Numbered from the stretch's first letter, positions 12,005-63,550 are shown. The stretch: 64,000 nt of DNA from an uncultured Acidobacteriota bacterium (GCA_963741955.1 CAVUKB010000005.1:736001-800000), one strand, 5' to 3'. Notes: generated by a model not told the origin, from the sequence alone. Made by a program: numbers and translations.

Positions 12005-12021
12005 AGACTCGAGGCTCGATC

Positions 12022-12105: not shown

Positions 12106-12106
12106 C

Positions 12107-12136
12107 TTGACCCTTTTTTCGAGCGGATGCTACCAT
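12107..12136 (+). promoter_or_regulatory. Putative sigma70 promoter of the mglA-like gene
   Basis: TTGACC-18 nt-TACCAT with extended TGn, 40 nt before the ATG. Confidence 0.55.
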
Positions 12137-12176: not shown

Positions 12177-13427
12177 ATGGTGTTCTTCAATTACGCGACG
12201 ATGCAGATGGCCGCGAAGATCGTTTACTACGGTCCGGGGCTCTGCGGGAAGACGACCAATCTTCACCACATCTATTCGAAGACGTCGCCTCAGGGTCGCG
12301 GTGAGATGGTCAGCCTCGAGACAGAGACGGACCGGACTCTGTTTTTCGATCTCCTCCCGCTCGAAGTCGGTGTGATCGGCGGCTTCAAGACCCGTCTGCA
12401 GCTCTACACGGTTCCGGGACAGGTGTTCTACAACACCACCCGCAAACTGGTGCTCAAAGGAGCGGACGGGATCGTCTTCGTCGCGGACTCACAGCGGGCA
12501 ATGGCGGACGCGAACGTCGAGAGTCTGAAGAACCTCAGAGAGAATCTCAAAGAGATCGGGTTGAATCTCGACGAGATGCCGATGGTGATTCAGCTGAACA
12601 AGCGCGATCTCCCGAACGCGATGCCTCCCGCGGAGATCCTCCGCCTGCTCGATCCCGATGCGCGGTGGGATTCGGTCGAGGCGGTCGCGGTGAAAGGAGA
12701 AGGAGTCTTCGAGACGCTCAAGACGGTCTCGAAGCTCACGCTCCGCACCATCCGCCAGAGGATGGCCGGTGACGATACGGCGCGACCTGCCGCACCACCC
12801 GCTGCCGGCCGTGCGGTGCTGAAGGTCATCTCGGAGTCGTCGCAGGCGCGGCCTCAGGAAGTCTCTCCGGCGCGCACCATCTCGGTGCCGAACCCACTCG
12901 CCTCCCCTCCTCCCCAGGAGACTTCGCCCGCGGGCGCGGCGACGCCGCACGAAGCGAAACCGGCAGCTGACGAACCGCCGATGCACCTGGTCGAAAATGA
13001 AGCGGCGTCCCATGCGGAGTCGGCGACGGCCACGATGGAAGCGGCTCGGCCGGAGCCTGACGTCGACTTCGCACACGAAGAGAAGGAACCGGCCGCAAAG
13101 GAATCCGACGTCAAGCACGTCCGGGTCCGGTCGTCGGTCGACATCATGGCGGAGCTCGAGCAGCTGCGGAAGAAAGCGACCCAGGCCGCACCGCGGTCCA
13201 GACGGGGCGAGGTCGACCTCGATTCGCTCATGCATCCGCGACGCGAGGTGCACAAGAGTTTCCCGGTCCAGGCGGCTCCCGGAACCAGAACGGTGCGCGT
13301 GAGCGTGGCGTTCGAGGACCAGAACGGCGAGACGATCGGACAGGACGAGAGCTCCTGGGCGGTGGACTCATCCGAAGTGGAGACTTTGCTGGTAAACTTG
13401 AAGGCGAATCTCGGTTCCGATTCCTGA
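12177..13427 (+). CDS. mglA: MglA-family small GTPase with a ~220-aa C-terminal extension
   Basis: KIVYYGPGLCGKTTNL, ETDRTLFFD, LYTVPGQVFYN, VADSQ, NKRDLP; then a Pro/Ala/Glu-rich linker and a C-terminal domain. Confidence 0.88.
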   Translation: MVFFNYATMQMAAKIVYYGPGLCGKTTNLHHIYSKTSPQGRGEMVSLETETDRTLFFDLLPLEVGVIGGFKTRLQLYTVPGQVFYNTTRKLVLKGADGIVFVADSQRAMADANVESLKNLRENLKEIGLNLDEMPMVIQLNKRDLPNAMPPAEILRLLDPDARWDSVEAVAVKGEGVFETLKTVSKLTLRTIRQRMAGDDTARPAAPPAAGRAVLKVISESSQARPQEVSPARTISVPNPLASPPPQETSPAGAATPHEAKPAADEPPMHLVENEAASHAESATATMEAARPEPDVDFAHEEKEPAAKESDVKHVRVRSSVDIMAELEQLRKKATQAAPRSRRGEVDLDSLMHPRREVHKSFPVQAAPGTRTVRVSVAFEDQNGETIGQDESSWAVDSSEVETLLVNLKANLGSDS

Positions 13428-13492: not shown

Positions 13493-14863
13493 GTGAAAAG
13501 AGCTCGCTGGGTAGTGCTGGCGCTCTCGTGGACGGCGTTCGCCTGTGCGACCGCTCCGGTTTCGACCAGAACCGTACCCCACTCTCCTCCGACACCCTCC
13601 GTTTCCCACGCTGATCTCTCGCCGGACGACATGATCCGCTACCGGAAAGATCTCGAGGACGCATACGAGAGGATCCTCGCGCGTACCGGCGGAACCGCAC
13701 AACCGACGCTCGCCGACGCAGACGCCGCACTCTCGATCGACATCCCGGACCATCGCACCATCAACGGTGCGCTCGACTACTTCTCCACCGATCTGCACGA
13801 CAGCATTCAGGCTTCGCTGTATCGCGCCGCGCGGTACAGGAAGATGATCGATCGGGTGCTCGATCAGGAGCATCTCCCGCGGGGTCTCGCCTATCTTCCG
13901 GTGATCGAGAGCGCGTACATGCCGACGCTCACCTCGCGTGCGGGGGCACGCGGAATCTGGCAGCTGATGCCCGACACCGCACGCGAGCTCGGACTCCGCG
14001 TCGACTGGTGGGTCGACGAACGCTGTGATCCCGAACAGTCGACCCGGGCCGCCGCAGTATACCTTCGCCGTCTCTACGATTCCTTCGGCGACTGGCCGCT
14101 CGTCCTCGCTGCCTACAACGCCGGCCCCGGACGGATTCAGCGCGCACTCGACCAGACCGGATCCTCGACGTTCTGGCAGCTTCTCGATCAGGCTGCGATT
14201 CCGAAGGAGACGCGCGGCTACGTTCCGACCTTCTTCGCCACTCTGCTCATCGTCAGCGATCCCTCCGCGCGGGGATTCGAGCTGATCGACGACGCACCGG
14301 ATCTTCGCCGTCCGGTCACCGTCGAAGGGCCAGTGACTCTCGGCTACGTCGCGTCGGTCGCCGGCAGCGATCCTCGCGATCTGGAGGAGATGAACCCCGC
14401 ACTCCGCCACGGCATCGTCCCTCCCGGCAAGCAGACCATCTTCGTCCCTCCTTCCGCCGTTCCCGCCGTCGCGCAGCAGGCCTCCACACTGCACAACGAC
14501 GACCCGAACCTTCCCGTCGCGACGTTCACCCTCCGCCGCCACGACTCACTCGCATCTCTCGCCCGCCGTCTGAAGGTGAGCCCCCAGGAGATCGTCGCGA
14601 TGAACGGAGGATCCGCTGCTCCCGGCCAGTCGATCTATCTCCCGGTGACCCAGCGCCGCCTCTCCGAGCTTCTCTCCGGGCCTCCCGCCGAGACGCTCTA
14701 CACCGTGACCTCGGGCGACACGCTCTACTCGATCGCCCGGCGGCACGGGCTGAAGGTCGAAGAGCTGATGGACCTCAACCAGCTCGGCGGCTCCACCACG
14801 ATCCATCCGGGCGACCGGCTGCGCGTCACCACCGGCCAGACGCTGACCGCCGGCGCACGCTGA
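13493..14863 (+). CDS. Lytic transglycosylase with LysM domains (MltD-like lipoprotein)
   Basis: Lipobox-like AFAC, VIESAY, GIWQLMP.TA, LAAYNAG, ETRGYV; LysM YTVTSGDTLYSIARR. Confidence 0.9.
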   Translation: MKRARWVVLALSWTAFACATAPVSTRTVPHSPPTPSVSHADLSPDDMIRYRKDLEDAYERILARTGGTAQPTLADADAALSIDIPDHRTINGALDYFSTDLHDSIQASLYRAARYRKMIDRVLDQEHLPRGLAYLPVIESAYMPTLTSRAGARGIWQLMPDTARELGLRVDWWVDERCDPEQSTRAAAVYLRRLYDSFGDWPLVLAAYNAGPGRIQRALDQTGSSTFWQLLDQAAIPKETRGYVPTFFATLLIVSDPSARGFELIDDAPDLRRPVTVEGPVTLGYVASVAGSDPRDLEEMNPALRHGIVPPGKQTIFVPPSAVPAVAQQASTLHNDDPNLPVATFTLRRHDSLASLARRLKVSPQEIVAMNGGSAAPGQSIYLPVTQRRLSELLSGPPAETLYTVTSGDTLYSIARRHGLKVEELMDLNQLGGSTTIHPGDRLRVTTGQTLTAGAR

Positions 14864-14868
14864 AGGCA

Positions 14869-15067
14869 TCTGTTATCTGTTATCTGTTATCTGTTATCGA
14901 TCCTCGATCCTCGATCCTCGATCCTCGATGCCTTTCAGATCCTCGATCCTCGATCCTCGATGCCTTTCAGATCCTCGATCCTCGATCCTCGATGCCTTTC
15001 AGATCCTCGATCCTCGATCCTCGATCCTCGATGCCTTTCAGATCCTCGATGCCTTTCAGATCCTCGA
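14869..15067 (+). repeat. Higher-order tandem array: (TCTGTTA)4 then (TCCTCGA)n runs separated by TGCCTTTCAGA
   Basis: TCCTCGA run lengths 4,3,3,4,1,1; the array ends 17 nt before a TATACT -10 box upstream of ileS. Confidence 0.95.
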
Positions 15068-15163
15068 TAATCCACGCCTCCTTGTATACTCGCGAGCCAT
15101 TCGGCGTGATGAAATGCGCCGGGCTCCCGACGAGGTTCCGCGATTCACGAGGTTGAGAACACG

Positions 15164-49546: not shown

Positions 49547-51010
49547 CTACGACCCCCCTTCGCCTGGTTTCATCGCGAAGACGACCCCGAGCGGGCCGGC
49601 CCTCTGAATCGGCTTGATCCTGAACTCACGCGCGAGAACGGCGAATTCGGGAGACTGTATCTCCCCCACCCATACGAAGGAGCCGAGAGATCTCAGAGCC
49701 TCACTCTCCTTGCGGAGATCCCTCGCCGGCTCGACGGCCCGCCACCCCGGATGGTGGGCCTGTGACGCCGGAAACGGGATCACCAACGGATCCCAGGTGC
49801 GATTCTCCAGCATCACCACCTCGAGGTAAACGAGCCCACTGGTGACGATCGGCACGCGAGCGGGAACGTTCTCCCGGACATACAGCGCAGCCGCTTCGTA
49901 GGGATCGGGTGGCGCCGAAGCCTGAGAGAGAATCATCGACGCACAGGCCAGCACCCCGACGGCGGTGGCGGTCCCGAAGAGCACGGCCCGACCCGGCCAT
50001 TTCCACTGAGCCACGCCTTCACCCATCCAGAGAACGAAGGGCACCGTCAGAACGGACTCGAATCGCATCGGGAAGTAGACCGGCTTTCCTGCGAGAGAGA
50101 AGCCGACCACGACCAGCGAGGGAAACAGCACCACCGCCGCGAAGCGCCGGCCGCGGGGACTCGCCAATCCCGCAGCGGCCATCAGCGCAACCACCAGGAT
50201 GGAGATCACACGCAGGACGACCGGCGCATCGAACAGAACGTAGGAGGGATATTTCGCGGCAAACCCGAGTTGTGTCGCGATCGATGCGGCAACCGCCGAT
50301 GGCGAGGCGGGAGCGCCGGCCGCCATCCACGCGATCGCCTCTCGTGGCTGAGACCACGCGAGCCAGAAACCGGGAATGTAGAGAATTCCGGCGGCCACTC
50401 CCGCCACGGCGCCACGCAGCGCCTCCCGCCAGCGGGCTTCCACGGCCGCCATGATCGCCGGCAACGGAAGAAAAAGAACTCCGTAATCGTGCGTCCATGC
50501 CGCGACGAGAAACGCGAGCATCGACAACCAGAGGAAACGCCCCCCGCCGTCGGTCAGCCATCGGTCCGCCGCCAGGACTCCCACTCCCACCAGGCTGAGG
50601 CAAAGTGCATACGCGCGTGCTTCGGTGGTGTAGTAGAAGTTCGCCGGGACGACGACCAGAAGCACTGCTGCGGCGAACCTCCATCTGCCGAGCCACTGGC
50701 CCCGGAGGATCACGAACAGTGGGACCATCCCGACCGCGATCGAGAATGCGCGGAGAGTCTGCACCGGCACTGCGGAAAGCGGAACGAGCAGGTGAGCGAT
50801 GAGATAGTAAAGGGGTGGCCCCGAATCCCGCATCAGCTGCGCGAAGAGCCGCGGGAGCGGCAGCAATGCAGCCCAGACCGTGAACTTCTCGTCGAAGAAC
50901 GGGCGGCGCGCCAGGGCGAACACTCCCCGCAGGAGGAGATCACTGGTGAGGACGGCGATGAAGATCGGGATCCGACGTCGGACGGGTTCGTCGACTGCCG
51001 GAACGTTCAC
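49547..51010 (-). CDS. Polytopic membrane glycosyltransferase (GT-C / GT39-like)
   Basis: FFDE, D.GPPLYY, LR..S, YYTTEARAY; many TM segments. Confidence 0.78.
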   Translation of the reverse strand: MNVPAVDEPVRRRIPIFIAVLTSDLLLRGVFALARRPFFDEKFTVWAALLPLPRLFAQLMRDSGPPLYYLIAHLLVPLSAVPVQTLRAFSIAVGMVPLFVILRGQWLGRWRFAAAVLLVVVPANFYYTTEARAYALCLSLVGVGVLAADRWLTDGGGRFLWLSMLAFLVAAWTHDYGVLFLPLPAIMAAVEARWREALRGAVAGVAAGILYIPGFWLAWSQPREAIAWMAAGAPASPSAVAASIATQLGFAAKYPSYVLFDAPVVLRVISILVVALMAAAGLASPRGRRFAAVVLFPSLVVVGFSLAGKPVYFPMRFESVLTVPFVLWMGEGVAQWKWPGRAVLFGTATAVGVLACASMILSQASAPPDPYEAAALYVRENVPARVPIVTSGLVYLEVVMLENRTWDPLVIPFPASQAHHPGWRAVEPARDLRKESEALRSLGSFVWVGEIQSPEFAVLAREFRIKPIQRAGPLGVVFAMKPGEGGS

Positions 51011-51381
51011 GCAGTGAGGAGCTCCGTGATCGTCTTGATCAGGTGAGAAGACTGGATCGGCTTCGAGATATAGGCATTCGCGCCGAGCGCCAGTCCGCGC
51101 TCGCGATCCTCTTCCGCCCCTTCGGTGGTGATGATGATGATCGGGATCTCTTTCAGCTGTGCGTTCTGGCGCACCAGAGAGACGAGCTTCAGCCCGTCCA
51201 TCACCGGCATGTTGATGTCGGTCAGGATCAGATCGATGTTCTCGCCCGAGAGTTTCTTGAGCGCATCGACACCGTCGACCGCTTCAATGATGCGGGAGTT
51301 CTTGAATCTCTTCAAAGAGAAAGAGATCAACTGCCGCATGGTGGGCGAGTCTTCAACGACCAGAAAAGTGGCATTCTCCAT
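51007..51381 (-). CDS. CheY-like single-domain response regulator
   Basis: VEDS, TDINMP.MDG, ITTE, KP. Confidence 0.93.
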   Translation of the reverse strand: MENATFLVVEDSPTMRQLISFSLKRFKNSRIIEAVDGVDALKKLSGENIDLILTDINMPVMDGLKLVSLVRQNAQLKEIPIIIITTEGAEEDRERGLALGANAYISKPIQSSHLIKTITELLTA

Positions 51382-51396
51382 CCGTCAGGCATCCGT

Positions 51397-52218
51397 TCAA
51401 TTGGTAGTCAGCAGATCGAGGAAGCTCTGGATCGTATTCAGCTTTCGCTCCGACTGCGAGTAAAGCTTCGAAGAGAAGATCGCGGTCGCCGCGTGGGCGG
51501 CGAGAAGCGAAAAGAGCTCGTAGTCGACCGCAGTGAAGGAATCCTTCTGCTGGAGCAGACTGTAGATGACGATCAGCCCGATCACGTGTTCCTTGATCTT
51601 GAGAGGAACGGCGGCGAGAGGGCGGTCGAGGGAGACGTCCCCTCCTTCGATGTCCTGGTTGACGTAATAGCTCTCTCCGGTCTTGGCGACTTCCCCGAGA
51701 ATGCCTTCGCCCAGGCGAATGGTCATCTCCCCGATTCCGCGAAGCTGCTCCGTCCCTTCTGCGGCGATCGCCTTCAGATCGTTCGATTTCTCGTCCAGCA
51801 GGAGGAGGGCGAAGCACTCCGCTCCGACCAGGTTGATGATGATCTCCTGGACGATCTGGATCACTTCCCTGAAATCGAGAGTCGAATGGAGCTGATAACT
51901 CGCGACGTAGAGATTCGCGAGATTGTTGTTCTGCTCTTCGATCTCGACGTAGCGGTGGGCGAAGTCCTTGTTCTCTTCCTCCACTCGCTCGAAGCGCTCC
52001 GTCAGGCGGCGGTTCTCTTCCATCACCTGCTGGAACTGATCGCGAAGGTGCTGCATCTCCTCGATCGTGGCGCTGGAGACCTCGTTCGAGCTCTCCAGCG
52101 AGGCGAGACGATACCGGAGCCGCTGGTTCTCCTTCAGGAGAGCCTCGGTGAATTCTTTCCCCTTGTTGAAGAGCTCGAGGAATTTTTCGGCTTTGCGGTT
52201 GACGTCGTCTGTGCTCAT
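51397..52218 (-). CDS. Coiled-coil + GAF domain protein
   Basis: Long heptad N-terminal region, LYVASYQLHSTLD, GEGI.G.VAKTG, VPLKI, D.ELF..LA.HAA.A. Confidence 0.85.
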   Translation of the reverse strand: MSTDDVNRKAEKFLELFNKGKEFTEALLKENQRLRYRLASLESSNEVSSATIEEMQHLRDQFQQVMEENRRLTERFERVEEENKDFAHRYVEIEEQNNNLANLYVASYQLHSTLDFREVIQIVQEIIINLVGAECFALLLLDEKSNDLKAIAAEGTEQLRGIGEMTIRLGEGILGEVAKTGESYYVNQDIEGGDVSLDRPLAAVPLKIKEHVIGLIVIYSLLQQKDSFTAVDYELFSLLAAHAATAIFSSKLYSQSERKLNTIQSFLDLLTTN

Positions 52219-52270
52219 GCGGACCCGTTGAATCTAACACAACTGCCGAGCTCTAAATAAGCAATTTCTT

Positions 52271-53311
52271 TCATCCCATGCAGATACGATGAATCGCTCC
52301 GGGGATCTCACCGACGGGAAGAACCTCCTCCACCGCGCCGGTACGGATCGCCTCTCCCGGCATCCCGAAGATGATCGCGGTCGATGCCGCCTCGGCGATG
52401 GTCCTTCCCCCGGCTTCGCGGATCCGACGGATCGAATCGGCTCCGTCATCGCCCATTCCGGTCAGGACGATCGCCAGAACCCGGTCGGCACAACTCTCCA
52501 CTGCGCTGGAAAAGAGCCGGTTCACCGACGGTGCATAGAGATCACTGACACTCTTTTCGGAGACGCGGATTCTCAGATCCTCACCACTCCTGACGATCTC
52601 GGTCTGAGATCCCCCCGGCGCGATGTAGACCCATCCCGTCACGAGCGGCTCGCCGTCTTCCGCCTCTTTGACCCGGTAGCTCGCGAGCCGGTTCATTCGC
52701 TCCGCGAACACCCGGGTGAACGTCTGCGGCATGTGCTGGGCGACGACGAACGGTACGGGGATGAGGGGCGTCTGCTGGAAGAGGCTCTGGAGTGCAGGAG
52801 GGCCCCCCGTGGAGGCGCCGATCACCACGAGATCGATGTTCTTGGCCCGGCCGCTGACCATCCGGTCCGACCTCGCCCGGGGAGGCTCTTCCTCGTGAAT
52901 CCGCTTCTGGACGTTCTCCAGCCGGATCTCCGCACATTGCCGGACTTTCGAGAGCAACTCCTCGCCGATCTCTTCGAGCCGCGGCGAGACGCGCCCTCCC
53001 GGCTTCGCGATGAAGTCGACGGCCCCCAGCTCCAGCGCCTTGAACACGCTCCGGTCACTCGCCCGCGACGAAACCGCGATGACCGGGCGAGGGAGGTTCG
53101 CCATCAGCCAGCGGAGAAACGCGAATCCGTCCATCACCGGCATCTCGAGATCGAGCGTGATCACGTCGGGGCGGTAACGGAGCACCTGCTTGATTCCATC
53201 CTCACCGTTGATCGCGGTCGCGACCACCTGAACCTCGCCGCTCGACTCCAGCATCTTGGCCAGAGTGACCCTGTTGTAGGCGGAATCATCGATGACGATG
53301 GCTTTGATCAT
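52271..53311 (-). CDS. cheB: Chemotaxis methylesterase (REC + CheB)
   Basis: TLDLEMP.MDG, GASTGGP, QHMP, PSV, LTGMGDDG, FGMP. Confidence 0.95.
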   Translation of the reverse strand: MIKAIVIDDSAYNRVTLAKMLESSGEVQVVATAINGEDGIKQVLRYRPDVITLDLEMPVMDGFAFLRWLMANLPRPVIAVSSRASDRSVFKALELGAVDFIAKPGGRVSPRLEEIGEELLSKVRQCAEIRLENVQKRIHEEEPPRARSDRMVSGRAKNIDLVVIGASTGGPPALQSLFQQTPLIPVPFVVAQHMPQTFTRVFAERMNRLASYRVKEAEDGEPLVTGWVYIAPGGSQTEIVRSGEDLRIRVSEKSVSDLYAPSVNRLFSSAVESCADRVLAIVLTGMGDDGADSIRRIREAGGRTIAEAASTAIIFGMPGEAIRTGAVEEVLPVGEIPGAIHRICMG

Positions 53312-53481
53312 TCGCAGTCGGGCCCGGGAGCTCCGCCGCTGCGAGGAACGGCAGCTGGTGCGGAGCAAGCCGGGCTCTCCGCGCTGAAGGATATGCAAAA
53401 ACCCCGAAGAATGGGAGAGCGATTACAGGTCGAACGCTGCACGGCGGCGCGGAAAGGAGGATCGGTTCGGTTTTCGGACCG

Positions 53482-54333
53482 TCAGCGCTGGTAGACCATG
53501 TCGTGCTTCAGATGCCGGAGCCGGAAATGCGTCGAGAGGGAGATCAGTGATTCGGAGTGGCCCAGGAGAAGGTAACCGCCGTCCCCCAGACGGTTGTAGA
53601 AGCTGCCGATCACGGCACGCTTGGAGCTCTCGTCGAAATAGATGATCACGTTCCGGCAGAAGATCACGTCCAGCTGACCGAGAAGGGCAACCCGGGATTC
53701 GTCGTACAGGTTCACCCGGCCGAACGAGACCCGATTGCGGATCGAGTCGCCGATTCGCCATGAGGAGTCGGGCTCGCGGGTGAAGTATCGCTCCCGGAGC
53801 TCGGGCGACGTTGCGCGAAATGCATTCTCTCGATAGATGCCTTTGCGCGCCTTTGCGAGGACGAGTTGATTGATGTCACTGGCGAAGATCTCGAACTGAG
53901 CGCGCTCGTAGTATCCCCTCTCGGCAAGGAGCATGGCGATGGTGTACGGCTCTTCACCCGAAGAACAGCCGGCCGACCAGATCCGGATCTTCCGGCTCCC
54001 CTTCTTTTCGATCAGCTCCGGAACGATCTCCTCGATGAAGGCCGAGAGCTGGGCGGGCTCGCGCATGAAATACGTCTCGTTCGTGGTGACCACGTCGAAG
54101 ATCCGGTCCATCTCCGAGTCGGATCTCGGGTCGTACTGCAGAAAGTAGAAGTACTTCTGGAAGGATTCGAAGTTCAGTTCGCGGGCGCGGGCGGAGAGGC
54201 GCTTCTGCAGAAGGTACTTGGAGCTGTCGGCGAACCAGAGACCGCTCTTGCTGTAGATCAGATCCCGCAGCATCCGGAAGACGTCGTCCGGAAGCTCGAG
54301 ATGATGATTCAGGGACAGGTTGAACGAGCTCAT
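53482..54333 (-). CDS. cheR: Chemotaxis methyltransferase
   Basis: TTNETYFMRE, IWSAGCSSGEEPY, DVIFCRNVIIYF, LGHSES. Confidence 0.95.
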   Translation of the reverse strand: MSSFNLSLNHHLELPDDVFRMLRDLIYSKSGLWFADSSKYLLQKRLSARARELNFESFQKYFYFLQYDPRSDSEMDRIFDVVTTNETYFMREPAQLSAFIEEIVPELIEKKGSRKIRIWSAGCSSGEEPYTIAMLLAERGYYERAQFEIFASDINQLVLAKARKGIYRENAFRATSPELRERYFTREPDSSWRIGDSIRNRVSFGRVNLYDESRVALLGQLDVIFCRNVIIYFDESSKRAVIGSFYNRLGDGGYLLLGHSESLISLSTHFRLRHLKHDMVYQR

Positions 54334-54394
54334 GGAACGGTTTCACCGATCTGAAGGATCATCGCCGTTTTCCGCCGAGTGCTCTGGCGGCACA

Positions 54395-56644
54395 TCACGA
54401 ACGCGACTCCCGCTGCGACTGGTCGGCGCCTCTCATCGCCTCGAGGATCGCCGCGATGACCGGCTCGCGCCGGTTGTCGGCTTCCCTCCAGGCCGCCTCG
54501 AGGAGCGAACGATAAATCTCCTTGTGCCGGACGAGCAGATCCGAGACGTCGTCCAGAATCGCCGGGTTGTCGAGTGACTGCAGGAGGAACGGGAACGATT
54601 CCGGCCTCCCGAGTTTGTCGATCGCCTCCACGGCAGAGTGCTGAACGTACGGATCGGGATCGTCGGCAAGAATGTGATGGACCTGATCGAGCACTCGCGT
54701 GTCGCCACGGTTGCCGAGGGCCACGACTGCAGCGGCGCGGAGACGCCAGTCCGGATGCTGGAGCGTCGCGGTCAGGCGCTCGAAGACTTCCTCGCCCGGG
54801 ATGCGCGCGAGTGCCTGGATCGCTGCTCGCCGGATCTCCGGATCTTCGATATCCGCGGCTTCGAGCAGAGCTGGCAGGACTTCTCGGAGCGCGGACTTCC
54901 CGAGCGCTTCGATTGCCGCGATCTTCACCGGAGCGAGATCCTCGCGCAGATGCTGAACGAGATGAGGGACAGCCGCCTGGTGGCGGTATTCGCCGAGTGC
55001 CTGCGCCGCGGCGGTCCTGATCCAGACGTCTCCGTCCTCGAGGGAGCTGAAGAGCGGATCGAGGCCCGTCTCGGGTCGGAGGTGGACGATCGCGTTGATT
55101 GCAGCGAGGCGCACTCCGGTCGACTCGTCGGCGAGGGAGAGGACCAGCTGGGCGGCAAAACGTTCTTCGCTGAATTTCCCCATCAGCGAGATCGCTTTCT
55201 GCCGGATCACCGGGTCCCCGTCCTTCGATGCGAGCAGTAGCTCGTCGTGGTAGCCCTCTCCCTGGATGTTCACGTAGATCGAGAGCGAGTTGAGCTTGAT
55301 GGGGATCGACGACGACGCGAGCAGTTTTCTGATTTTGACCAGAGTGTCGTTCTTGATCTCCGGGAACGCCGCTACGAGGGCGGAGATCGAGTTCACCGCT
55401 GCCTGTTGCGCTCCAACGTCCGCGTCGTCCAGCTCCGCGAGGAGGTAGTCGATCGAGGATGGATCGAGAATCTCACCCAGGGTCTCGATCGCGAGGCGCC
55501 GGATCATCGAGTTCGGATGGTCGAGGAACGAGAGAATGGTCGGAATCGATTCCGCCCCGGCGATCAGGTTCAGCACCCGGAGGAGGAGAGCCGTGACGTC
55601 GTCGTCTTCCGAATTCCTGAGCTTCTGGAGGACCGGGATCGTCGCGTCGCTCCCGTAGTCGATGAGTGCCTCCGCCGCAACTTCGGCCGTCTCCGGGTTC
55701 TCGATGAATTCGAGGAGAACGTCGAGAGCTTCGGCGTCACCCGACCATCCGAGCAGCTTGAGGATGAAGCTTCGTACCTCGCGCTTCGGGGTCGCCCGGA
55801 GATGGTCGATCAGCGGATGCATTTTGGACTTCGGGAATGCTTCCCGGAACCGCTTCTGGATCACTGCCCTTTCCGCGGCCTCCACGATGCGGGGCTTGTC
55901 CGCTTCGGCGATGCGGATCAATGCGCGAAGCGCGGTCAGGTTCAGCTTCTCTTCCTCGTTGATCACCTTCAGGAGGAAATTCACGGTTCCCACGTCGGCG
56001 ATTTTTCCCACCGATTCGAGTACCGGTTTGCGGAGCGACTTTTCGGCATAAAGGGGAAGAATGGACGGGAGGGCGGCCCGATCACCGATCTCGCCGAGCG
56101 CCTCGATCACGTGAAACTTCAGCCACAGGTCGTCCCGCCGGAGAGCACGCAGCAGATCCGGGAGGGAGCGGGGATCACGGTACTTGCCGATCGAGGTGAC
56201 CACCGAAGAGAGCACGTTGACGTCGGTCTCGGTGGCCAGTAGTTTGAGGAGCCGCTCGAGCGCCGCTTCGTTCCGCAGGTCTCCGAGCAGATTGACGAGC
56301 GAGAGCCGGACGTCGACATCGCCCTCCCGCTCCACTCTTGCCAGGACGTGAGGAAGAGCGTCGGCGCCGATGCGGATCAGCGCCTCCGTCGCGGAGTTTC
56401 GCTTCCCGGCATTCTCCGGATCGTGCAGTGCGTCGAGGAGTCCCTCGACCACTCTCGCGGAAGGTTCTCGAAGCAGTCCTTCGATGATGGTTTTCCGGAC
56501 GCGCCAGTCGCGGTCACCGAGCATCTCGAAGATCAGCGGAAGGTCCTCGGGCCCGATCTGTCGAGCGACCTGCTGAGCCGCTTTCTGGCGAAGGTCCGCG
56601 TCGCTGGATCTCGCCTGTTCCAGGAGCTTCTGATCGGTCGTCAT
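54395..56644 (-). CDS. HEAT-repeat protein
   Basis: Many L.D....VR..A..ALG units over 749 aa. Confidence 0.9.
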   Translation of the reverse strand: MTTDQKLLEQARSSDADLRQKAAQQVARQIGPEDLPLIFEMLGDRDWRVRKTIIEGLLREPSARVVEGLLDALHDPENAGKRNSATEALIRIGADALPHVLARVEREGDVDVRLSLVNLLGDLRNEAALERLLKLLATETDVNVLSSVVTSIGKYRDPRSLPDLLRALRRDDLWLKFHVIEALGEIGDRAALPSILPLYAEKSLRKPVLESVGKIADVGTVNFLLKVINEEEKLNLTALRALIRIAEADKPRIVEAAERAVIQKRFREAFPKSKMHPLIDHLRATPKREVRSFILKLLGWSGDAEALDVLLEFIENPETAEVAAEALIDYGSDATIPVLQKLRNSEDDDVTALLLRVLNLIAGAESIPTILSFLDHPNSMIRRLAIETLGEILDPSSIDYLLAELDDADVGAQQAAVNSISALVAAFPEIKNDTLVKIRKLLASSSIPIKLNSLSIYVNIQGEGYHDELLLASKDGDPVIRQKAISLMGKFSEERFAAQLVLSLADESTGVRLAAINAIVHLRPETGLDPLFSSLEDGDVWIRTAAAQALGEYRHQAAVPHLVQHLREDLAPVKIAAIEALGKSALREVLPALLEAADIEDPEIRRAAIQALARIPGEEVFERLTATLQHPDWRLRAAAVVALGNRGDTRVLDQVHHILADDPDPYVQHSAVEAIDKLGRPESFPFLLQSLDNPAILDDVSDLLVRHKEIYRSLLEAAWREADNRREPVIAAILEAMRGADQSQRESRS

Positions 56645-57465
56645 GAGTGTTCGGTGCCGGTTCTCAGACGTTGGAGCTCCTCACGCTTCATCTGGACGAA
56701 CTGCTGAAGAGTCTCGGTGAAGATCTCCGTCGTCTGGCGGACGCGAAGAGGGACGCGGGATTCGTAGTACTGCCGTCCGTCGGCGATCTCGTCGCCGAGT
56801 ACGTCGAAAAAAGTTCCCTCCCGGATTCCTCGCTCCACCTTCTCGTTGTTGTAGATGATGATGTCGGAGAGGATCAGCCGGGCCAGCCTCCGCGCCTCGT
56901 CGATCTCGACCGGCTCGGGATGGAGCGCGGTGGTGGGACGCGCGTCGGGGAAAAGCTTCTCGATGATCCCGCGAAGCTCCCGCGCCGGGATCTGCTCCTC
57001 GATGTATTCGTCCGCTCCATAGAGGTTCGTCGGGTTGGCCCTGAACCGATTGGCCCTGAAAAGTGCGCCGATCAGCACCACCCGGGTCTGCGCGAGCCTG
57101 GGATCGGCTTTGATCTCCTCCGCGATCTCGACTCCGAGCTTCCCCTTCAGATAAACGTTCAGGATCACCAGCGCGGCGCTCCGCTCTCGAACGAATGCCA
57201 GTGCGGCGTCGCCGCTCTCGAAGAACTGCACCTTGAAATTCATCTGCGCGAGCTGATCACCGAGGAACTTTCGAAACTCCCGCGGTTCGTCGGCGATGAC
57301 CGCGATACGTTCCGACGATCCCGAAGCATCGGCGCCCGTCGCAGCGGAAGGTCGCAGCACCATCTGTTTCCCGCACGAAGGACATGCGAGACGGACGGGC
57401 GTAGCGAGAGGCAGTTTCACTGCCGCTCTGAAAATCGCGTTGCATTGCCGGCATTTCAGTTCCAT
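56641..57465 (-). CDS. Zinc-ribbon + pseudo-receiver + RomX-like C-terminal domain protein
   Basis: CRQC...CPSC; REC fold with Asn at the phospho-acceptor site (LVILNVYL); C-terminal ARRLARLILSDIIIYN..K...GI.....F......I..GR..Y.SRV. Confidence 0.8.
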   Translation of the reverse strand: MELKCRQCNAIFRAAVKLPLATPVRLACPSCGKQMVLRPSAATGADASGSSERIAVIADEPREFRKFLGDQLAQMNFKVQFFESGDAALAFVRERSAALVILNVYLKGKLGVEIAEEIKADPRLAQTRVVLIGALFRANRFRANPTNLYGADEYIEEQIPARELRGIIEKLFPDARPTTALHPEPVEIDEARRLARLILSDIIIYNNEKVERGIREGTFFDVLGDEIADGRQYYESRVPLRVRQTTEIFTETLQQFVQMKREELQRLRTGTEHS

Positions 57466-57477
57466 AGGCAGGTGATC

Positions 57478-58341
57478 CTAGAAAGTTAGCACTCGATCCA
57501 GATCGAGAAGTATCGACAGCCTGTCACCGGACTGAAATACCCCGTCGATGTATTCGCTCTGCTCGTTCGCGTTGACCACGGGATGTTTCTCGATCTGCGA
57601 CGGATCGATCTTGATCACCCGCGAGACCCGATCGACGGGGAAGCCGGCAGTTTCGCCTTTCGCCTCCACGACGATGATTCTCACATCGGGATGATCCAGC
57701 GAAGTAACGGGATGTCCGAGCGTCCGGCGTAGATCCAGAATTGTGACGATTGTACCCCTGAGGGAGATGATTCCCATGACGGTGTCCGAGGAATTCGGCA
57801 CCCGGGTCGGAGTGCGCGGCGTGATGATCTCGATGATCCGTTCGAGATCGACGGCGTAATGTTCTCCCGCGAGGTCGAAACTCAGAAGCTGCCGGAGATC
57901 CTCTCCTCCCTCCTCCTGCTGGACGGAGAGGAGCCGCACTTCCTCGACCCTCTGTCCCGCCCCGCGCTTGAACCGCTCCAGACGGGCACCTGCAGTCGCA
58001 GCCGGAAGCCCGCGTTTCGAAGCTGCGGGGGCCGAGGGGGCCTTCTCCTCCCGCACATCGTTCGGAGCCGATCTTGCGGGCTCCGTTTTCGCCAGCGGTC
58101 GCCCTCCCGAATCGTCTCCCGCTCCCGGAGCGTCATCCCCGCCCCCGCGGGCACTCTTCTTTTCGGTGCGCTCGGGCTTCGACTGCGGAGACGCCTTCCG
58201 GGGTTTCGAAGAACGGGGAGGTTTCTGCCGCCTCTCCGTTTCCTCGATCGATTCCGGAGTCTCTTCCCCGCCGTTCGCCTCCTGTGACAGGGCCGCCGCC
58301 TTCTCCTTCGCCTTCCTGCGAATCTTCACCAGATCAACCAT
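57478..58341 (-). CDS. cheW: CheW with a long N-terminal disordered extension
   Basis: F.LAGEHYA, I.EII, TRVP, GIISLRG.IV, VD.V, LLDL. Confidence 0.9.
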   Translation of the reverse strand: MVDLVKIRRKAKEKAAALSQEANGGEETPESIEETERRQKPPRSSKPRKASPQSKPERTEKKSARGGGDDAPGAGDDSGGRPLAKTEPARSAPNDVREEKAPSAPAASKRGLPAATAGARLERFKRGAGQRVEEVRLLSVQQEEGGEDLRQLLSFDLAGEHYAVDLERIIEIITPRTPTRVPNSSDTVMGIISLRGTIVTILDLRRTLGHPVTSLDHPDVRIIVVEAKGETAGFPVDRVSRVIKIDPSQIEKHPVVNANEQSEYIDGVFQSGDRLSILLDLDRVLTF

Positions 58342-58349
58342 GGTTCATC

Positions 58350-59153
58350 TCACCTGATCAGACGGTGTTCCCGCGCCGCCGCACGAACACGATCTGCCTC
58401 CACTGTCGAAGCGTCTTCCCCGAAAGCGTCGAGAAGTGCAGTCGTCGCGATCGTATTGATCAGCCGGGGAATTCCTCCGGTCGCCTCGTGAACCGCCGCC
58501 ACCGCCTCGGGAGTGAACGGATTCGACTCTCCCCCCGCTACACGGATCCGGTGGTCGATGTACTCACTGGTCTGCTCGGGAGTCAGGGGCCCGAGATTGT
58601 AGCGGAGTCCGATCCTCTGGCGCAGCGCGGCGTACGCCTTGTGGTCGAGCCGCGATTCGAGCTCCGGCTGTCCGAGGAGAACCAGAGCCAGAAGGTTCTG
58701 GTCGTCGAGCTGGAAATTGGTCAGGAGTCGGATCTCGTCGAACGTCGCCTTTTTCGGAATGAGCTGCGCCTCGTCGATGATCACCACCGGCTCACGCCCT
58801 TGTTCGTACAACTCGTACAGCGCAGTGTGAATCTGGTCCAGAAGATCGTTGCGGAAACGCTGCGGAACGAGACCCAGTCCCGAAGCGATGGTGCGAAGCA
58901 GCTGAGCAGGGGTCAGGACTGGATTGATGATCAGAACCACCGGATGCGATTCGCCGATCCGGTCGATCAATGCCCGGGAGATGGTCGTCTTTCCCGATCC
59001 CACGTCCCCGGAGAGGAGCGCGAAGTCCTTCTCGTCGACTGCGTACTCCAGCCTCGCGAGAGCTTCCCTGTGTTGTGGGCTCTCGTACAGGTAGGCCGGA
59101 TTCGGCGTTCTGCCGAACGGTGCCTCACGGAATCCGAAGAACTCGTGGTACAT
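58350..59153 (-). CDS. ExeA/GspA-family AAA ATPase (ATPase domain only)
   Basis: MYHEFFGF..PF..TP.P, GDVGSGKT, IIDEAQ, LLGQPEL, LRQRI, GIPRLIN. Confidence 0.9.
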   Translation of the reverse strand: MYHEFFGFREAPFGRTPNPAYLYESPQHREALARLEYAVDEKDFALLSGDVGSGKTTISRALIDRIGESHPVVLIINPVLTPAQLLRTIASGLGLVPQRFRNDLLDQIHTALYELYEQGREPVVIIDEAQLIPKKATFDEIRLLTNFQLDDQNLLALVLLGQPELESRLDHKAYAALRQRIGLRYNLGPLTPEQTSEYIDHRIRVAGGESNPFTPEAVAAVHEATGGIPRLINTIATTALLDAFGEDASTVEADRVRAAAREHRLIR

Positions 59154-59157
59154 GGGC

Positions 59158-61179
59158 TCAGACCGCAGCGGCCCCCCTGCTCCGGACGGTGCGGGCCACA
59201 CTGCCGAAGTTGTCGATCAACGAACCGACGTCGACCACCAGAACGATCTCGTTCTCGCCGATCTCCGTCGCTCCCGCGACTCCCGGGATGGTCTTCAGCC
59301 TCTCGCCGATGGATTTGATCACGATCTCCTGCTGCCGTACGAGCGCGTCGACCAGCAGACCGACCAGCCGCTCGCCCGACCGGGTCACCACCACGAACCA
59401 TTTGCTGTCGGGAGTGTCCGTGCTGCGGCCGTCGTCGACTCCGAATGCGTCCGCGAGCCGGATCAGAGGGAGCGTGAAGTCGCGCAGATTGAATACTTCG
59501 CGCCTCTCGACCGTCCCGATCTCCCGCGCCCGTATCCTCAGCGACTCTTCCACGGAAGTGAGAGGAATGGCGAAGAGATCCTTTCCAACTCGCACCACGA
59601 GGGCCTGGAGAATGGCCAGGGTGATCGGGAGCATCACCCGGAACGTGGATCCCTTTCCCGGTTCGCTCAGCACGTCGATGGATCCCTTCAGGTCCTGGAT
59701 GTTCCGCCGAACCACGTCGAGACCGACACCGCGGCCGGAGATCTCGCTGACTGACGCCGCCGTCGAGAACCCGGGCGCGAAGATCAGCTCTGCGGCTCTC
59801 ATCTGGTCGAACGCATCGCCGGACCCGATCACGCCCTTCTTCGCCGCCGTCTTCCGGATCCGCTCGATGTCGATCCCGCGGCCGTCGTCGGAAACGTCGA
59901 TCACCACCGAGTTCCCCTTCTGATACGCCTGAAGAACGATGCTGCCCTTCGGTGGTTTTCCCGCCGCGATCCTCTCTTCGACCGGCTCGATCCCATGGTC
60001 GATCGCGTTCCGGATGATGTGCATCAGCGGATCAGTCAGCTGGTCGACCATCATCTTGTCGAGCTCCGTGTCTTCACCACGGAGGATCAGCTCGATCTCT
60101 TTCCCGAGCTCCCGCGCCACCTTCCGCACCGTGCGGGAAAGCTTCGAGTAGATCTGTCCCACCGGGACCATCCGGATCTCGATCACCGATTTCTGCAACT
60201 CGTTGAGCCGCCGGTCGAGATTGCGCGAGATCTTGTTCAGTTCCTGGATGCTGCTGCGTCCGCCGCGGGAATCGGAGGTCCGCGCGAGCGTTTCGAGATG
60301 AGCCTTCTCGATCAGAAGCTCGCCAACCACGTTCATCACGTGGTCGAGCTTCCGGATGTCGACCCGGACCGTGTTGGACATCGAACGAAGCGAAAGATCG
60401 TCCTCGACGGTACCCTCTCCTCCGGCGATGGACGGCTCCGTTTTCCGGAGAGAGCTGACCGTCGCCCGTTCGCCGACGAGATCTTCGACACTGGAACGAT
60501 TCAATTCCGTTCCGTACAACAGACGGAAGCCGATCCCTCCTCCTCCCGCCGTATCGACGGAGGGAAGCGTGGAGATCACCTCACCGTGGTCGTTCAGATC
60601 GCCACTGAGCTCCCGAAGACGCTCGTCGAAATCGGTCAGATCGAAGCTCGCTTCCACCGAGAGGACGTTCCGGCCGGAGCGGAGGTTCTCGAGAAGGCGA
60701 TGCTCTTCGTACTCGGTCAGCGACTTCCGCGTCTGGTCGTCGAGATCGATCTGCTCGAGCGGATCGTCATCGACGATCGGCTTCTGGTTCGTCACCAGCT
60801 GATGGATCCGGGTGGTGAGCTTCGGGAGATCGACCAGTGCCGCCAGTTGCGGATCGTAGATTCCGATCACCAGACGGTTGAGTGAATCAACCGCATCGTA
60901 AAGAAGATCGTAGAGCTCCCGGGAGATCTCCAGACGTCCCATCCGGAGCCGGTCGAGCATGTCCTCCAGATTGTGCGAAAGCTCGGAGATCTCCGCGAAG
61001 CCGAGCATCCCGGCCAGACCCTTGAGCGAATGAACGTTCCGGAAGATCTTGTTGATCAGCTCCGGGCGTACGCCCTTTCCCTGCGATTCGAACTCCGACA
61101 GATCTCGAGAGAGGGTATCCAGGAGCTCCTCTGCTTCCGAAGTGAACTCCTGCCTCGCACGATCGTCCTCTTTCGTCAT
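59158..61179 (-). CDS. cheA: Chemotaxis histidine kinase CheA
   Basis: Hpt IFRNVHSLKG, VRVD..KLD, HIIRNAIDHGIE, DDGRG, PGFSTA, SGRGVGLD, C-terminal CheW-like P5 domain. Confidence 0.96.
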   Translation of the reverse strand: MTKEDDRARQEFTSEAEELLDTLSRDLSEFESQGKGVRPELINKIFRNVHSLKGLAGMLGFAEISELSHNLEDMLDRLRMGRLEISRELYDLLYDAVDSLNRLVIGIYDPQLAALVDLPKLTTRIHQLVTNQKPIVDDDPLEQIDLDDQTRKSLTEYEEHRLLENLRSGRNVLSVEASFDLTDFDERLRELSGDLNDHGEVISTLPSVDTAGGGGIGFRLLYGTELNRSSVEDLVGERATVSSLRKTEPSIAGGEGTVEDDLSLRSMSNTVRVDIRKLDHVMNVVGELLIEKAHLETLARTSDSRGGRSSIQELNKISRNLDRRLNELQKSVIEIRMVPVGQIYSKLSRTVRKVARELGKEIELILRGEDTELDKMMVDQLTDPLMHIIRNAIDHGIEPVEERIAAGKPPKGSIVLQAYQKGNSVVIDVSDDGRGIDIERIRKTAAKKGVIGSGDAFDQMRAAELIFAPGFSTAASVSEISGRGVGLDVVRRNIQDLKGSIDVLSEPGKGSTFRVMLPITLAILQALVVRVGKDLFAIPLTSVEESLRIRAREIGTVERREVFNLRDFTLPLIRLADAFGVDDGRSTDTPDSKWFVVVTRSGERLVGLLVDALVRQQEIVIKSIGERLKTIPGVAGATEIGENEIVLVVDVGSLIDNFGSVARTVRSRGAAAV

Positions 61180-61559
61180 CAGGAAGCCACCTTGAGGAGC
61201 TTTCGGAGTTTCTCCTGGAGCTCTTCCGGAGCGAAGGGCTTGACCAGGTACTGTTCCGCCCCGAGTGCCGCCGCCCGTTTGCGATCTTCGTCGCTGCTCT
61301 CGGTGGAGATCACCATGATCGGGATCGAACGGTAGACGGGATGATTCTTGAGGAAACTGACCAGCTCGAGGCCATTGATGTCCGGCATGTTGATGTCGGT
61401 CAGGATCGCGTCGAACTTGTGGTGAGGGAGCGTCTTGAGCGCCTCGAACCCACTCGAAGCCTCGACGATCTCGAGCTCGAACTCCTCGCTCTCCCCCTCG
61501 ATCATCGTCGTCAGATACGCTCTCATCGAAGGCGAGTCTTCTACCACCAATATCTTCAT
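61179..61559 (-). CDS. CheY-like single-domain response regulator
   Basis: VEDS, TDINMPDING, ISTE, KPF. Confidence 0.92.
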   Translation of the reverse strand: MKILVVEDSPSMRAYLTTMIEGESEEFELEIVEASSGFEALKTLPHHKFDAILTDINMPDINGLELVSFLKNHPVYRSIPIMVISTESSDEDRKRAAALGAEQYLVKPFAPEELQEKLRKLLKVAS

Positions 61560-63550
61560 ACCCAGTCCCGACCGCTCATTTTCGAATTCGCGATCAACGC
61601 ATTCTCGAACGCATAGCCGGCCTGAGAGAGAAATATCTCCAGGCCGCTCAGCCCGTCCACCGGCGCATGATGCTCGCCATTGTCTCCGTAAAAGAGCCCG
61701 ATCACCCGCTCGCGGCTGACGATCGGCATCACGACCACTTCGGTCGGCTGGGCCGGACCGAGGCTCCGGATCAACCTCTCGTTCCCCGATGTCCGGCTGA
61801 TCTTCCCGCGATGAATGCTGCGAGTGGTCGCGACGTGGCTCAGTACGGACGGTTCCGCTCCGGAGATTCTAATCGCTCCAGCACGCTGATTCACGTCCTC
61901 GCCCGCGCCGGTGGCCCCGAAACCGCTCAAACCCTCGAATTCGCCCGGCGTGGCGACGAAAATCACCCCCCGGTCGACGTACTCGGCAGCGAGCCGGAGA
62001 ATCGTTGACGAAACCTGATCGAGATCGTTCGGATTCGAGAGCTCGTTGATCAACTGTTTCAGAAGCGAGAATCCCCTCTCGGTGCGCTCCTTCTCCGCCA
62101 TCTCGTAGAACTGCTTTCCCGGTTCCGCCTCGCCATCGACGCTCCTCGAAAAGTGCTCCCACTCCGAGAAAGCCCTCTCCGCGAACAGGACCAGCTCCTC
62201 GGCGAACATCGACAGCTCTTCCTCGAGTCTTCCGGGCTGCAACCGCGCCGGCGAGGGACGGGTCACGTACAGATCGGCGCCTTTCTTCAACAACTCGCTG
62301 CGCCGCCCCAGGTCGCCACTGCGGTCGATCACCACGACCGGCAGACGCCGGTTGCGCTTCTTGATCGTCTCCATCAGATTCAGCGCCGGATCATCCTCTG
62401 CCTCCACGTCGAGCTCGAGGAACGACACGAAGAACTGATTTTCGTGAAACAGCTCGAGCACCGTGCGGTGCACTTCTTCGGGATGACCGTACTGATGGAT
62501 CTGTACCCCGCGGCGGGTGAATGCACGCCGGGCCGCGACCCGGACCATCGGATCTCTTTCGAACAACACCACCGCTCTGGCGACATCACCAGCACCTTCC
62601 GGCGAAGCCACACGGAACAGGCTGCGCGAATCGGAAGGCGCCACCGGAGCTTCCTGCAGGACGTCGGGAACGGAAGGAATCGCCGCCGGCTCCCGCGGGA
62701 GCTCCGGTTCGTCCTCCGGCGCCGATTCGAGCGCTCCGCTCAGCTCCGAGCTGACCAGAGACTCGAGATCGGCCGGTGCGGGCTCCTCACCGGCAAGATC
62801 GAACGGCTCATTCTCCTCGGACGGCTCCAGATCGAACGGACCACGCTCGGCCGGCACGGCGCCTTCGGCTTCCGCCGGGCTCTGCGCGAGCGAAGCGAGA
62901 TCCTGCAGGGACAAGGCGGGCTGCGAAGGAGTGCCCCCCGGCGACTCCGGGTCCGGCGCAGCTTCGCGCCGTGACGGTGGCGGTGGGGCGGTGGGTTCCT
63001 TCGTCCCTCTCAGCAATGCCTTCCCCGCCTTCATGCTCTCTTCGAGACCGCGAAGGGGCTTGAGCTTCTCTCCTTCCGCGCCGCCGAGGATCCGTTGCGG
63101 CTCGATTCCTCCCTCGCGGAAGATCGCATCCGGGTCGTATTCGATGTCCGGAACACCGACCGAATCACTGAGAATGAAGTTGAATTCTCCTTCGCGGCTG
63201 TCGACCAGTGGCCGAACGACGGCCAGCACCCGCTGATGAATGATCTCGGCGAGTCGTTCTTCATCGAGGAGATGGAGCTCCAGTGCGGCACGACCGGTCG
63301 CCACGCCCGATTCCTCGGCCTGGCGGAGCATCGGGAGGGAGCTCGCCGGCACGAGCTCGTTCTGCTCGAGATACGTGAGGAGGCTCGGACTTTCGGGTGA
63401 GGAGGCATTGACGACGAGGCCGTGCCTGAACAGAACGGTGTATCTTCCCGCCGCATCGATGATCTCGAGAATCCCGGTCCGGCGACTGAGAAACACGATC
63501 TGAACGATGTCGGTCAGAGAAAGATCTTCCAGCCGTCCGAGGAGGCTCAA
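61556..63550 (-). CDS. DUF4388 + degenerate receiver + GAF multidomain protein
   Basis: MSL.G.LEDLSL.DI.Q..TG.L and EGEF.F (DUF4388/PATAN-like), acidic linker, REC-like region lacking the canonical Asp, C-terminal GAF (VIGLFYGDN, QAG.A.EN). Confidence 0.85.
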   Translation of the reverse strand: MSLLGRLEDLSLTDIVQIVFLSRRTGILEIIDAAGRYTVLFRHGLVVNASSPESPSLLTYLEQNELVPASSLPMLRQAEESGVATGRAALELHLLDEERLAEIIHQRVLAVVRPLVDSREGEFNFILSDSVGVPDIEYDPDAIFREGGIEPQRILGGAEGEKLKPLRGLEESMKAGKALLRGTKEPTAPPPPSRREAAPDPESPGGTPSQPALSLQDLASLAQSPAEAEGAVPAERGPFDLEPSEENEPFDLAGEEPAPADLESLVSSELSGALESAPEDEPELPREPAAIPSVPDVLQEAPVAPSDSRSLFRVASPEGAGDVARAVVLFERDPMVRVAARRAFTRRGVQIHQYGHPEEVHRTVLELFHENQFFVSFLELDVEAEDDPALNLMETIKKRNRRLPVVVIDRSGDLGRRSELLKKGADLYVTRPSPARLQPGRLEEELSMFAEELVLFAERAFSEWEHFSRSVDGEAEPGKQFYEMAEKERTERGFSLLKQLINELSNPNDLDQVSSTILRLAAEYVDRGVIFVATPGEFEGLSGFGATGAGEDVNQRAGAIRISGAEPSVLSHVATTRSIHRGKISRTSGNERLIRSLGPAQPTEVVVMPIVSRERVIGLFYGDNGEHHAPVDGLSGLEIFLSQAGYAFENALIANSKMSGRDWV

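Follow-up and report, generated by a model that had tools for sequence, protein, structure and literature searches.

The stretch of DNA analysed here, hereafter the window (64,000 nucleotides from an uncultured Acidobacteriota bacterium, GCA_963741955.1, CAVUKB010000005.1:736001-800000), carries on its minus strand a chemosensory operon of 11 genes (51007-63550, 12.5 kb), the sixth of which occupies exactly positions 56641-57465 and encodes a protein of 274 amino acids with a zinc ribbon, a degenerate receiver, and a C-terminal domain resembling RomX, a Myxococcus xanthus protein that acts on the small GTPase MglA. The operon genes follow each other in the order PATAN (DUF4388)-receiver-like-GAF protein, CheY, CheA, AAA_22 ATPase, CheW, 274-amino-acid protein, HEAT-repeat protein, CheR, CheB, GAF protein, and CheY, and the ATG of the HEAT gene overlaps the stop codon of the 274-amino-acid protein gene (ATGA). 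None of the 11 genes encodes a methyl-accepting chemotaxis protein (MCP); the three MCP genes of the genome are located elsewhere. A previous reading of the window, made without database searches (the sequence-only reading), had described a RomX-like domain fused to a zinc ribbon and pseudo-receiver in a chemosensory operon, and had interpreted it as a built-in MglA-binding or guanine nucleotide exchange factor (GEF) module with an MglA homologue about 43 kb away; the C-terminal string quoted there corresponds to residues 190-238 of the protein.

The RomX-like nature of the C-terminus was borne out by a homology search over the region concerned (residues ~185-274), which was significant: the 90-residue domain matched PDB 8zna_A ('RomX') at E 8e-12 and without gaps, residues 6-84 aligning to residues 8-86 (79 residues), and the next match followed at E 0.33. 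A profile of 21 domain sequences matched RomX at E 8.7e-27 (next match 1.8e-4), and a profile of the distant family did so at E 5e-26. Residues 185-274 matched no Pfam family, and fold searches with the whole model (Foldseek pdb, VIA) list receiver matches only. In the AlphaFold2 (AF2) model, which was computed from a 74-row alignment (mean predicted local distance difference test (pLDDT) 89.9, predicted template modelling score (pTM) 0.60), the domain consists of helices at residues 186-216, 219-237, and 240-269 with pLDDT >90. Based on the sequence and profile comparisons, the domain is regarded as a genuine RomX homologue, and we consider this assignment secure.

RomX is reported to bind GTP-loaded MglA through its helix 1, and the substitutions R11A/R14A and D19A are reported to abolish binding or exchange (10.1101/2024.02.20.581209). 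In the ungapped alignment, R11, R14, and D19 of RomX correspond to R193, R196, and D201, which are invariant in 32/32 close relatives. Among 50 distant relatives these are also the best-kept positions, with Arg at R193 in 46, Arg at R196 in 48, and Asp at D201 in all 50. Helix 3, by which RomX binds the RomR receiver (10.1101/2024.02.20.581209), varies among che-operon orthologues, and Leu75/Arg76 of the RomR-receiver interface fall on Gln/Met. Only two RomX-like domains were detected in the genome, both being C-terminal parts of larger proteins, and there was no stand-alone RomX; a RomR-like partner was not identified either, RomR itself never having been specifically searched for. The second RomX-like domain (G000:C6:34839-36219; loci L002, L091, and L128) matches 8ZNA at E 5.3e-10, has Glu at the D19 position, and ends a protein whose remainder is a GAF-like domain plus a Pro-rich linker. 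In this genome (G000) that protein is split over two reading frames in the Pro-rich region, by frameshift or assembly error, and it is unsplit in the relatives G067 (453 aa) and G039 (527 aa). Across the phylum, it is this GAF-linked subtype that appears to be widespread, and it occurs in genomes without MglA.

The fusion of a zinc ribbon to a receiver likewise held up, the former by its four invariant Cys and the latter by its Pfam match. The zinc ribbon is modelled as four short strands with pLDDT of about 95 (AF2); Pfam matches in the protein itself are under the cut-off (Zn_ribbon_8 E 4.9e-4, Zn_ribbon_4 E 2e-3), and Zn_ribbon_4/8 are strong in distant relatives. Comparison of the 50-residue N-terminus with the MglB-recruiting ZnR of GltJ/AgmX (PDB 7zok_A) gave E 0.86, zinc ribbons being too short for such a sequence test, and 7zok was not among the family-profile matches at E <= 1e-5. 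M1 as well as C5 and C8 are kept in 32/32 aligned homologues, and the ATG at 57465 is taken as the true start, given that none of them lacks the first CxxC. A public annotation (P0002, 259 aa) places the start at an internal GTG (residue 16) and so omits this first CxxC (window 57421-57465).

A receiver fold is present in the protein, as Pfam Response_reg (PF00072) spans residues 56-168 (E 1e-9, 39 bits vs. a cut-off of 30.2) and the model matches DivK 1m5t (VIA Z 18.0, rmsd 2.4 over 121 residues) and 1m5u (Foldseek E 6e-8). The phospho-acceptor position at the end of strand beta3 (residues 99-103 in the AF2 model) is occupied by Asn103, as had been noticed in the sequence-only reading; the column holds Asn in 6/7 che-operon orthologues of other acidobacterial families and Asp in 39/50 distant family members. 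In addition, Gly133 stands at the Thr/Ser position and Glu157 at the conserved Lys position, where 34/50 distant members have Lys or Arg, and the receivers of distant members match canonical regulators better (E about 1e-17 vs. 4e-11). Judged from these residues, the receiver of the che-operon lineage is degenerate, i.e., a pseudo-receiver, and this lineage has lost the phospho-site that most distant members retain. With the receiver degenerate throughout the lineage, the route from Che signalling therefore cannot be phosphotransfer through the 274-amino-acid protein. Residues 131-152 are invariant in 32/32 close relatives and include an Arg-rich loop, which was modelled without a helix (pLDDT 63-68, AF2) and of which motif variants are recognisable in distant relatives. 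An invariant loop of low model confidence would fit a binding motif.

The gene context was compared across the best 80 of 105 tblastn-confirmed loci from a scan of genome contigs, all labelled Thermoanaerobaculia or Acidobacteriota. CheW is encoded upstream in 78 of these 80 and the HEAT protein directly downstream in 76, and the ATPase was found in 73, CheR in 67, and CheA in 63; many of the 80 loci end at contig edges, which may account for some of the misses. Among metagenome loci of at least 6 kb (40 of 80), the corresponding numbers were 39 for CheW, 37 for HEAT, 36 for CheR, 34 for the ATPase, and 30 for CheA; the scans of genome contigs and of metagenomes alike yielded only close Thermoanaerobaculia orthologues. 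Twelve loci from other acidobacterial families were hand-picked according to how large an open frame enclosed the RomX-like match. In seven of them (G022, G040, G056, G104, G004, G068, and G077) the operon occurs in the same order with 31-39% identity of the 274-amino-acid protein, and HEAT lies directly downstream in all seven; the ATPase was unmatched in G077, and the proteins of G022 and G004 are without the zinc ribbon. Two of the twelve loci encode a similar protein (about 26% identity) with che genes not nearby, and in three the match is confined to the RomX-like domain. The gene's place in this MCP-less chemosensory operon is fixed, in agreement with its initial placement.

MglA and the RomX-like domain were then considered together across 201 acidobacterial genomes, of which 151 were matched by the domain profile and 149 by MglA. 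Both were found in 143 genomes, the RomX-like domain only in 8, MglA only in 6, and neither in 44; three unpublished genomes in the sample (G023, G048, and G145) all belong to the first group, leaving 140/198 without them, and the co-occurrence is a pattern rather than a statistic, as related genomes are not independent. All 13 genomes with the che-type protein have 3-5 MglA matches each. For complex modelling, the canonical MglA of the genome (21-row alignment), which was the sole paralogue modelled, was combined with GTP, Mg, and the domain (21-row alignment). The model reached an ipSAE of 0.64 (runs 0.64, 0.68, and 0.59) and the best of three controls 0.01; at least 90% of contacts are shared between the runs, and the partner pLDDT is at least 87. 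The predicted interface is formed by MglA residues 21-22, 51-53, 82-84, 108-109, 111-112, and 115 and by domain residues 9-22, 45-46, and 49. It includes R193, R196, and D201, with D201 placed against the P-loop and switch II, and is the one proposed in the RomX preprint from AlphaFold and mutagenesis; according to that preprint, the MglA-RomX complex did not yield crystals (10.1101/2024.02.20.581209).

The RomX-like family comprises 1426 clusters at E <= 1e-3 (185 at E <= 1e-10), occurs as stand-alone proteins, as single C-terminal domains, and as tandem repeats of up to five, and extends, with its distant, Asp-bearing members, to Geobacteraceae and Nitrospirae according to source-given names. 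In the 132 best family matches scanned, a receiver was found in 70, Zn_ribbon_4 in 35, and a Ras/Arf domain in 3. Three proteins (P0140, P0145, and P0185) have an MglA-type P-loop N-terminally, followed by 2-3 RomX-like repeats with the helix-1 motif; in P0185 the first 191 aa are 53% identical to the genome's MglA and two RomX-like repeats follow. The metagenomic proteins P0122-P0128 (600-1000 aa) consist of zinc ribbon and receiver, then 3-5 tandem RomX-like domains.

The genome (5.4 Mb, 99.1% complete) encodes one CheA above the Pfam cut-off, namely that of the operon, the other match being below it (22.4 bits). FlhA is absent from the genome, and ten T2SSE-family ATPases are present. Apart from the Che operon, no clear Che pathway is encoded by this non-flagellated soil bacterium, in which type IV pilus (T4P) ATPases are present. 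One MCP gene is located about 5 kb upstream of neighbouring genes for PilB-type and PilT-type ATPases (G000:C10:415225-422382) and may provide the receptor for a pathway linked to pili.

Five MglA-like GTPases are encoded in the genome. The canonical MglA (194 aa) has MglB just upstream and is the only paralogue with MglB adjoining; the four others (C5:748177, C4:453135, C13:112952, and C7:426923), among them the 12177 gene of the window, have C-terminal extensions of at least 200 aa that are low-complexity and acidic or Pro-rich. The MglA homologue noted about 43 kb away in the sequence-only reading is real, its first 200 aa being 61% identical to the canonical MglA, and its extension gave no Pfam match (of the extensions, the window copy was the one checked). 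Its linkage to the 274-amino-acid protein gene did not stand: orthologues of the two lay on one contig in 0/5 same-family or same-order genomes, MglA or MglB was found within 10 kb of the gene in 0/92 genome loci, and conserved linkage was rejected. Arrays of one and the same tandemly repeated heptamer (CTCGATC / TCGATCC), which reach about 18 copies and in part form a 32-bp unit, are located at window positions 11985-12108 and 14897-15068 and flank a two-gene unit of this MglA-like gene and an open reading frame at 13493-14863. The coordinates of all features are compiled in Table 1.

Table 1. Genes, protein domains, and sites in the window, in operon order with the MglA-like GTPase last (residue numbers refer to the 274-amino-acid protein)
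Feature	Position in window	Strand	Basis or remark
PATAN (DUF4388)-receiver-like-GAF protein, first operon gene	61556-63550	-	Pfam DUF4388 E 9.9e-17, Response_reg E 4e-4, GAF E 5e-3
CheY, 126 aa	61179-61559	-	upstream of CheA, conserved
CheA	59158-61179	-	H-kinase_dim 66.5 bits; only one in the genome above Pfam cut-off
P-loop ATPase (AAA_22) between CheA and CheW	58350-59201	-	Pfam PF13401 E 3.8e-21
CheW with 150-aa low-complexity N-terminus	57478-58341	-	Pfam CheW E 6.7e-34; 12-bp gap to the 274-amino-acid protein gene
Zn-ribbon / pseudo-receiver / RomX-like protein (P0001)	56641-57465	-	true start ATG at 57465
Zinc ribbon, residues 1-38, CxxC...CxxC	57352-57465	-	C5, C8, C28, C31 invariant (32/32)
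Pseudo-receiver, residues 53-171	56953-57309	-	PF00072 and fold matches
Asn103 codon, phospho-acceptor position	57157-57159	-	Asn in 32/32 close relatives
Arg-rich loop, residues 134-152 (19 residues), in place of receiver helix alpha4	57010-57066	-	invariant in 32/32
RomX-like domain, residues 185-274	56644-56913	-	match to PDB 8zna RomX; helical in AF2 model
Helix-1 motif, residues 190-205, with R193, R196, D201	56851-56898	-	ungapped RomX alignment; modelled MglA interface
HEAT-repeat protein, 749 aa	54395-56644	-	Pfam HEAT_2 E 7.9e-88
CheR	53482-54333	-	conserved downstream
CheB	52271-53398	-	conserved downstream
Coiled-coil GAF protein	51397-52218	-	conserved downstream
Second CheY	51007-51381	-	conserved downstream
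MglA-like GTPase with 216-aa C-terminal extension	12177-13427	+	one of five paralogues; candidate partner at most

Our best explanation, which we hold with intermediate confidence, is that the 274-amino-acid protein is a phosphorylation-independent accessory subunit that would couple the signalling complex of the Che system physically to the polarity switch MglA. The predicted binding to MglA is supported by several independent computational lines, drawn from residue conservation, domain fusions, co-occurrence, and structure prediction. The protein would act as a non-phosphorylatable adaptor of the MCP-less chemosensory system, the RomX-like three-helix domain using its helix 1 (R193, R196, and D201) to bind a GTPase of the MglA family in the GTP-loaded state, in the manner reported for Myxococcus RomX, and the zinc ribbon and pseudo-receiver with its Arg-rich loop holding the protein on the Che machinery. 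The anchor would most likely be the translationally coupled HEAT-repeat protein. Either the Che complex would be placed at a pole by MglA-GTP, or it would capture MglA-GTP beside its phospho-outputs (the two CheYs and the PATAN protein). We infer the binding itself, the MglA paralogue that is bound, the anchor, and the direction of information flow. The PATAN protein of the operon also points toward an MglA link: PATAN genes were reported near mglA and mglB (PMC4316618), and Synechocystis PATAN regulators bind the pilus motor (10.1101/2021.06.11.447907).

Several observations weigh against this coupling. Many architectures carry the RomX-like domain, so that a generic helical adaptor role is possible, and 8/151 genomes bearing the domain are without MglA even by profile at E 1e-3, two of them being single-contig. 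W87 of RomX, which belongs to the RomR interface, aligns to Thr269, i.e., the RomR-type contact is not kept, and neither mgl gene accompanies the 274-amino-acid protein gene in the loci examined. MglA binding is moreover predicted by a model, which supports it at an ipSAE mark that 58/80 solved complexes and 2/110 mismatched pairs reached, and the calibration was done without riding ligands or user alignments, so that these counts hold only roughly.

The alternative that fares best, although we consider it rather unlikely, is a RomX-like helical bundle without MglA contact that would act in docking or regulation, either on the receiver in cis or on components of the Che system (HEAT, CheA, or the ATPase), so that the protein would be a scaffold of that system. 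It draws on receivers being the commonest fusion partner of the fold (70/132), on the binding of the RomR receiver by RomX itself via helix 3, on the variety of architectures and the 8 MglA-less genomes, on the missing linkage to mglA/mglB, and on the tight coupling of the gene with the HEAT gene through the ATGA overlap. A module of this kind would not be expected from the distribution of conservation, the best-conserved surface being helix 1, which is the MglA face, and not the variable helix 3; and the margin of the complex model over its best control, the natural fusions of MglA with RomX-like repeats, and the strong phyletic co-occurrence of the domain with MglA all speak for contact. In addition, the four of the eight MglA-less genomes that were inspected hold only the GAF-linked subtype with Glu for Asp at the D19 position.

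An exchange activity, by which the Che operon would carry a built-in GEF loading MglA and specifically the paralogue 43 kb away, is in our view unlikely. RomX by itself is reported to stimulate the exchange of mant-GMPPNP on MglA, an activity lost in D19A and R11A/R14A (10.1101/2024.02.20.581209); the equivalents of R11, R14, and D19 are all conserved in the 274-amino-acid protein, and D201 sits at the P-loop and switch II in the complex model. According to Dinet et al. (10.1101/2024.10.31.621274), however, RomRX is an effector that binds only MglA-GTP and not a GEF, and binding of RomX only with GTP (10.1101/2024.02.20.581209) is unusual for a GEF. The proposal is further weakened by the missing RomR-like partner (see above for the scope of that statement), by the lack of conserved 43-kb linkage, and by the complex model, which covers the canonical MglA and not the 12177 paralogue of the window. 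Of the MglA-binding/GEF module put forward in the sequence-only reading, the binding part thus finds support in the retained contact residues and in a predicted complex that passes its controls, and the GEF part is unsupported, exchange by RomRX being disputed.

A phosphorylatable CheY-like response regulator with RomX-like output, in which phosphorylation by CheA would switch MglA binding, draws on the Asp and Lys/Arg kept by distant members and their more canonical receivers but was rejected as highly improbable here, given that the positions of Asp, Thr/Ser, and Lys are taken by Asn103, Gly133, and Glu157 and that the Asn is conserved in the che-operon lineage (32/32 close relatives and 6/7 other-family orthologues). 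The majority of the distant members keep the phospho-site, so that a phospho-switch may operate in other parts of the family.

Coupling through an MglA-docking subunit was compared with systems that are already described. The domain is homologous to M. xanthus RomX (8ZNA) over the whole roughly 80-residue helical domain with R11, R14, and D19 kept, and the modelled contact with the P-loop, the switches, and helix residues 108-115 of MglA matches the published model. RomX of M. xanthus is a stand-alone protein of about 90 aa that works with RomR, whereas the domain found here is the C-terminal part of a 274-amino-acid protein, is encoded in a che operon, and has not kept W87. The same three-part architecture is contained in the preprint of Chakraborty and Gayathri, which lists Zn-finger, receiver, and RomX-like regulators (A0A2N6E6P0, Desulfuromonas sp.; 10.1101/2024.02.20.581209), and the architecture as such is therefore already known from 2024. 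It stems there from a Foldseek survey that gives neither a function nor the surrounding genes, and in that text 'chemotaxis' occurs 0 times and 'chemosensory' once, in the introduction; literature searches returned no paper on a RomX-like domain in a che operon.

Frz of M. xanthus offers a precedent for a surface-associated, non-flagellar Che-type pathway that is coupled to the MglA switch (PMC3441718, PMC10329633), as would be the case here. There, the link consists of phosphorylated response regulators that are encoded apart from the polarity genes; in the present operon, unlike Frz, the MglA-binding-type domain is encoded inside the operon and on a protein that is not phosphorylatable at the usual site. 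FrzS of M. xanthus, in turn, uses a receiver fold as a protein-binding module in the MglA network, and the receiver matches it (2gkg, E 1.9e-6, Z 15.7). It is no closer to FrzS than to ordinary receivers such as DivK (Z 18.0), and the rest of the architecture differs.

With regard to the operon as a whole, MCP-less che clusters of the beta group have been described from Geobacter and myxobacteria including M. xanthus (PMC2577667), and these are, like the operon in the window, without an mcp gene. Cluster 5 of G. sulfurreducens (Esn) encodes CheA (GSU2222), an ATPase (GSU2221), and CheW (GSU2220) in the same order as found here; Esn mutants fail to colonise electrodes, and in the available part of that paper a link to MglA is not reported (PMC5585712). 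The beta-group member of M. xanthus is inferred to be Che8 (from PMC3945109), where MXAN_4754 and MXAN_4755 are located between cheW8a and cheR8 and, in the tables of that source, are not listed among the Che proteins. One acidobacterial homologue (P0045) bears the depositor-given, Geobacter-style name cheY40H-3. Orthology of the operon to the beta-group clusters of Geobacter and Myxococcus is thus suggested as a lead by gene names and gene order.

It is a tentative possibility that this bacterium possesses a chemosensory array with its own MglA-GTP docking subunit, acting by direct contact and not by phosphotransfer, and that the same subunit may occur in orphan clusters of the beta group in Deltaproteobacteria (Geobacter Esn and the presumed Che8). 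The routes by which non-flagellar Che pathways reach their targets are mostly unknown, as is the control of MglA-type GTPases outside Myxococcus, and the general function of beta-group clusters was termed unknown in a 2008 survey (PMC2577667). If they do contain the subunit, these clusters would gain a testable output, i.e., control of polarity or pili through MglA. For a system conserved across a major soil phylum, the proposal can be worded at the level of residues, with R193, R196, and D201 facing residues 108-115 and the switch regions of MglA. Should the Geobacter and Myxococcus beta-group clusters hold the module, it would be testable in genetically tractable organisms and would bear on the dispute whether RomX is an exchange factor or an effector.

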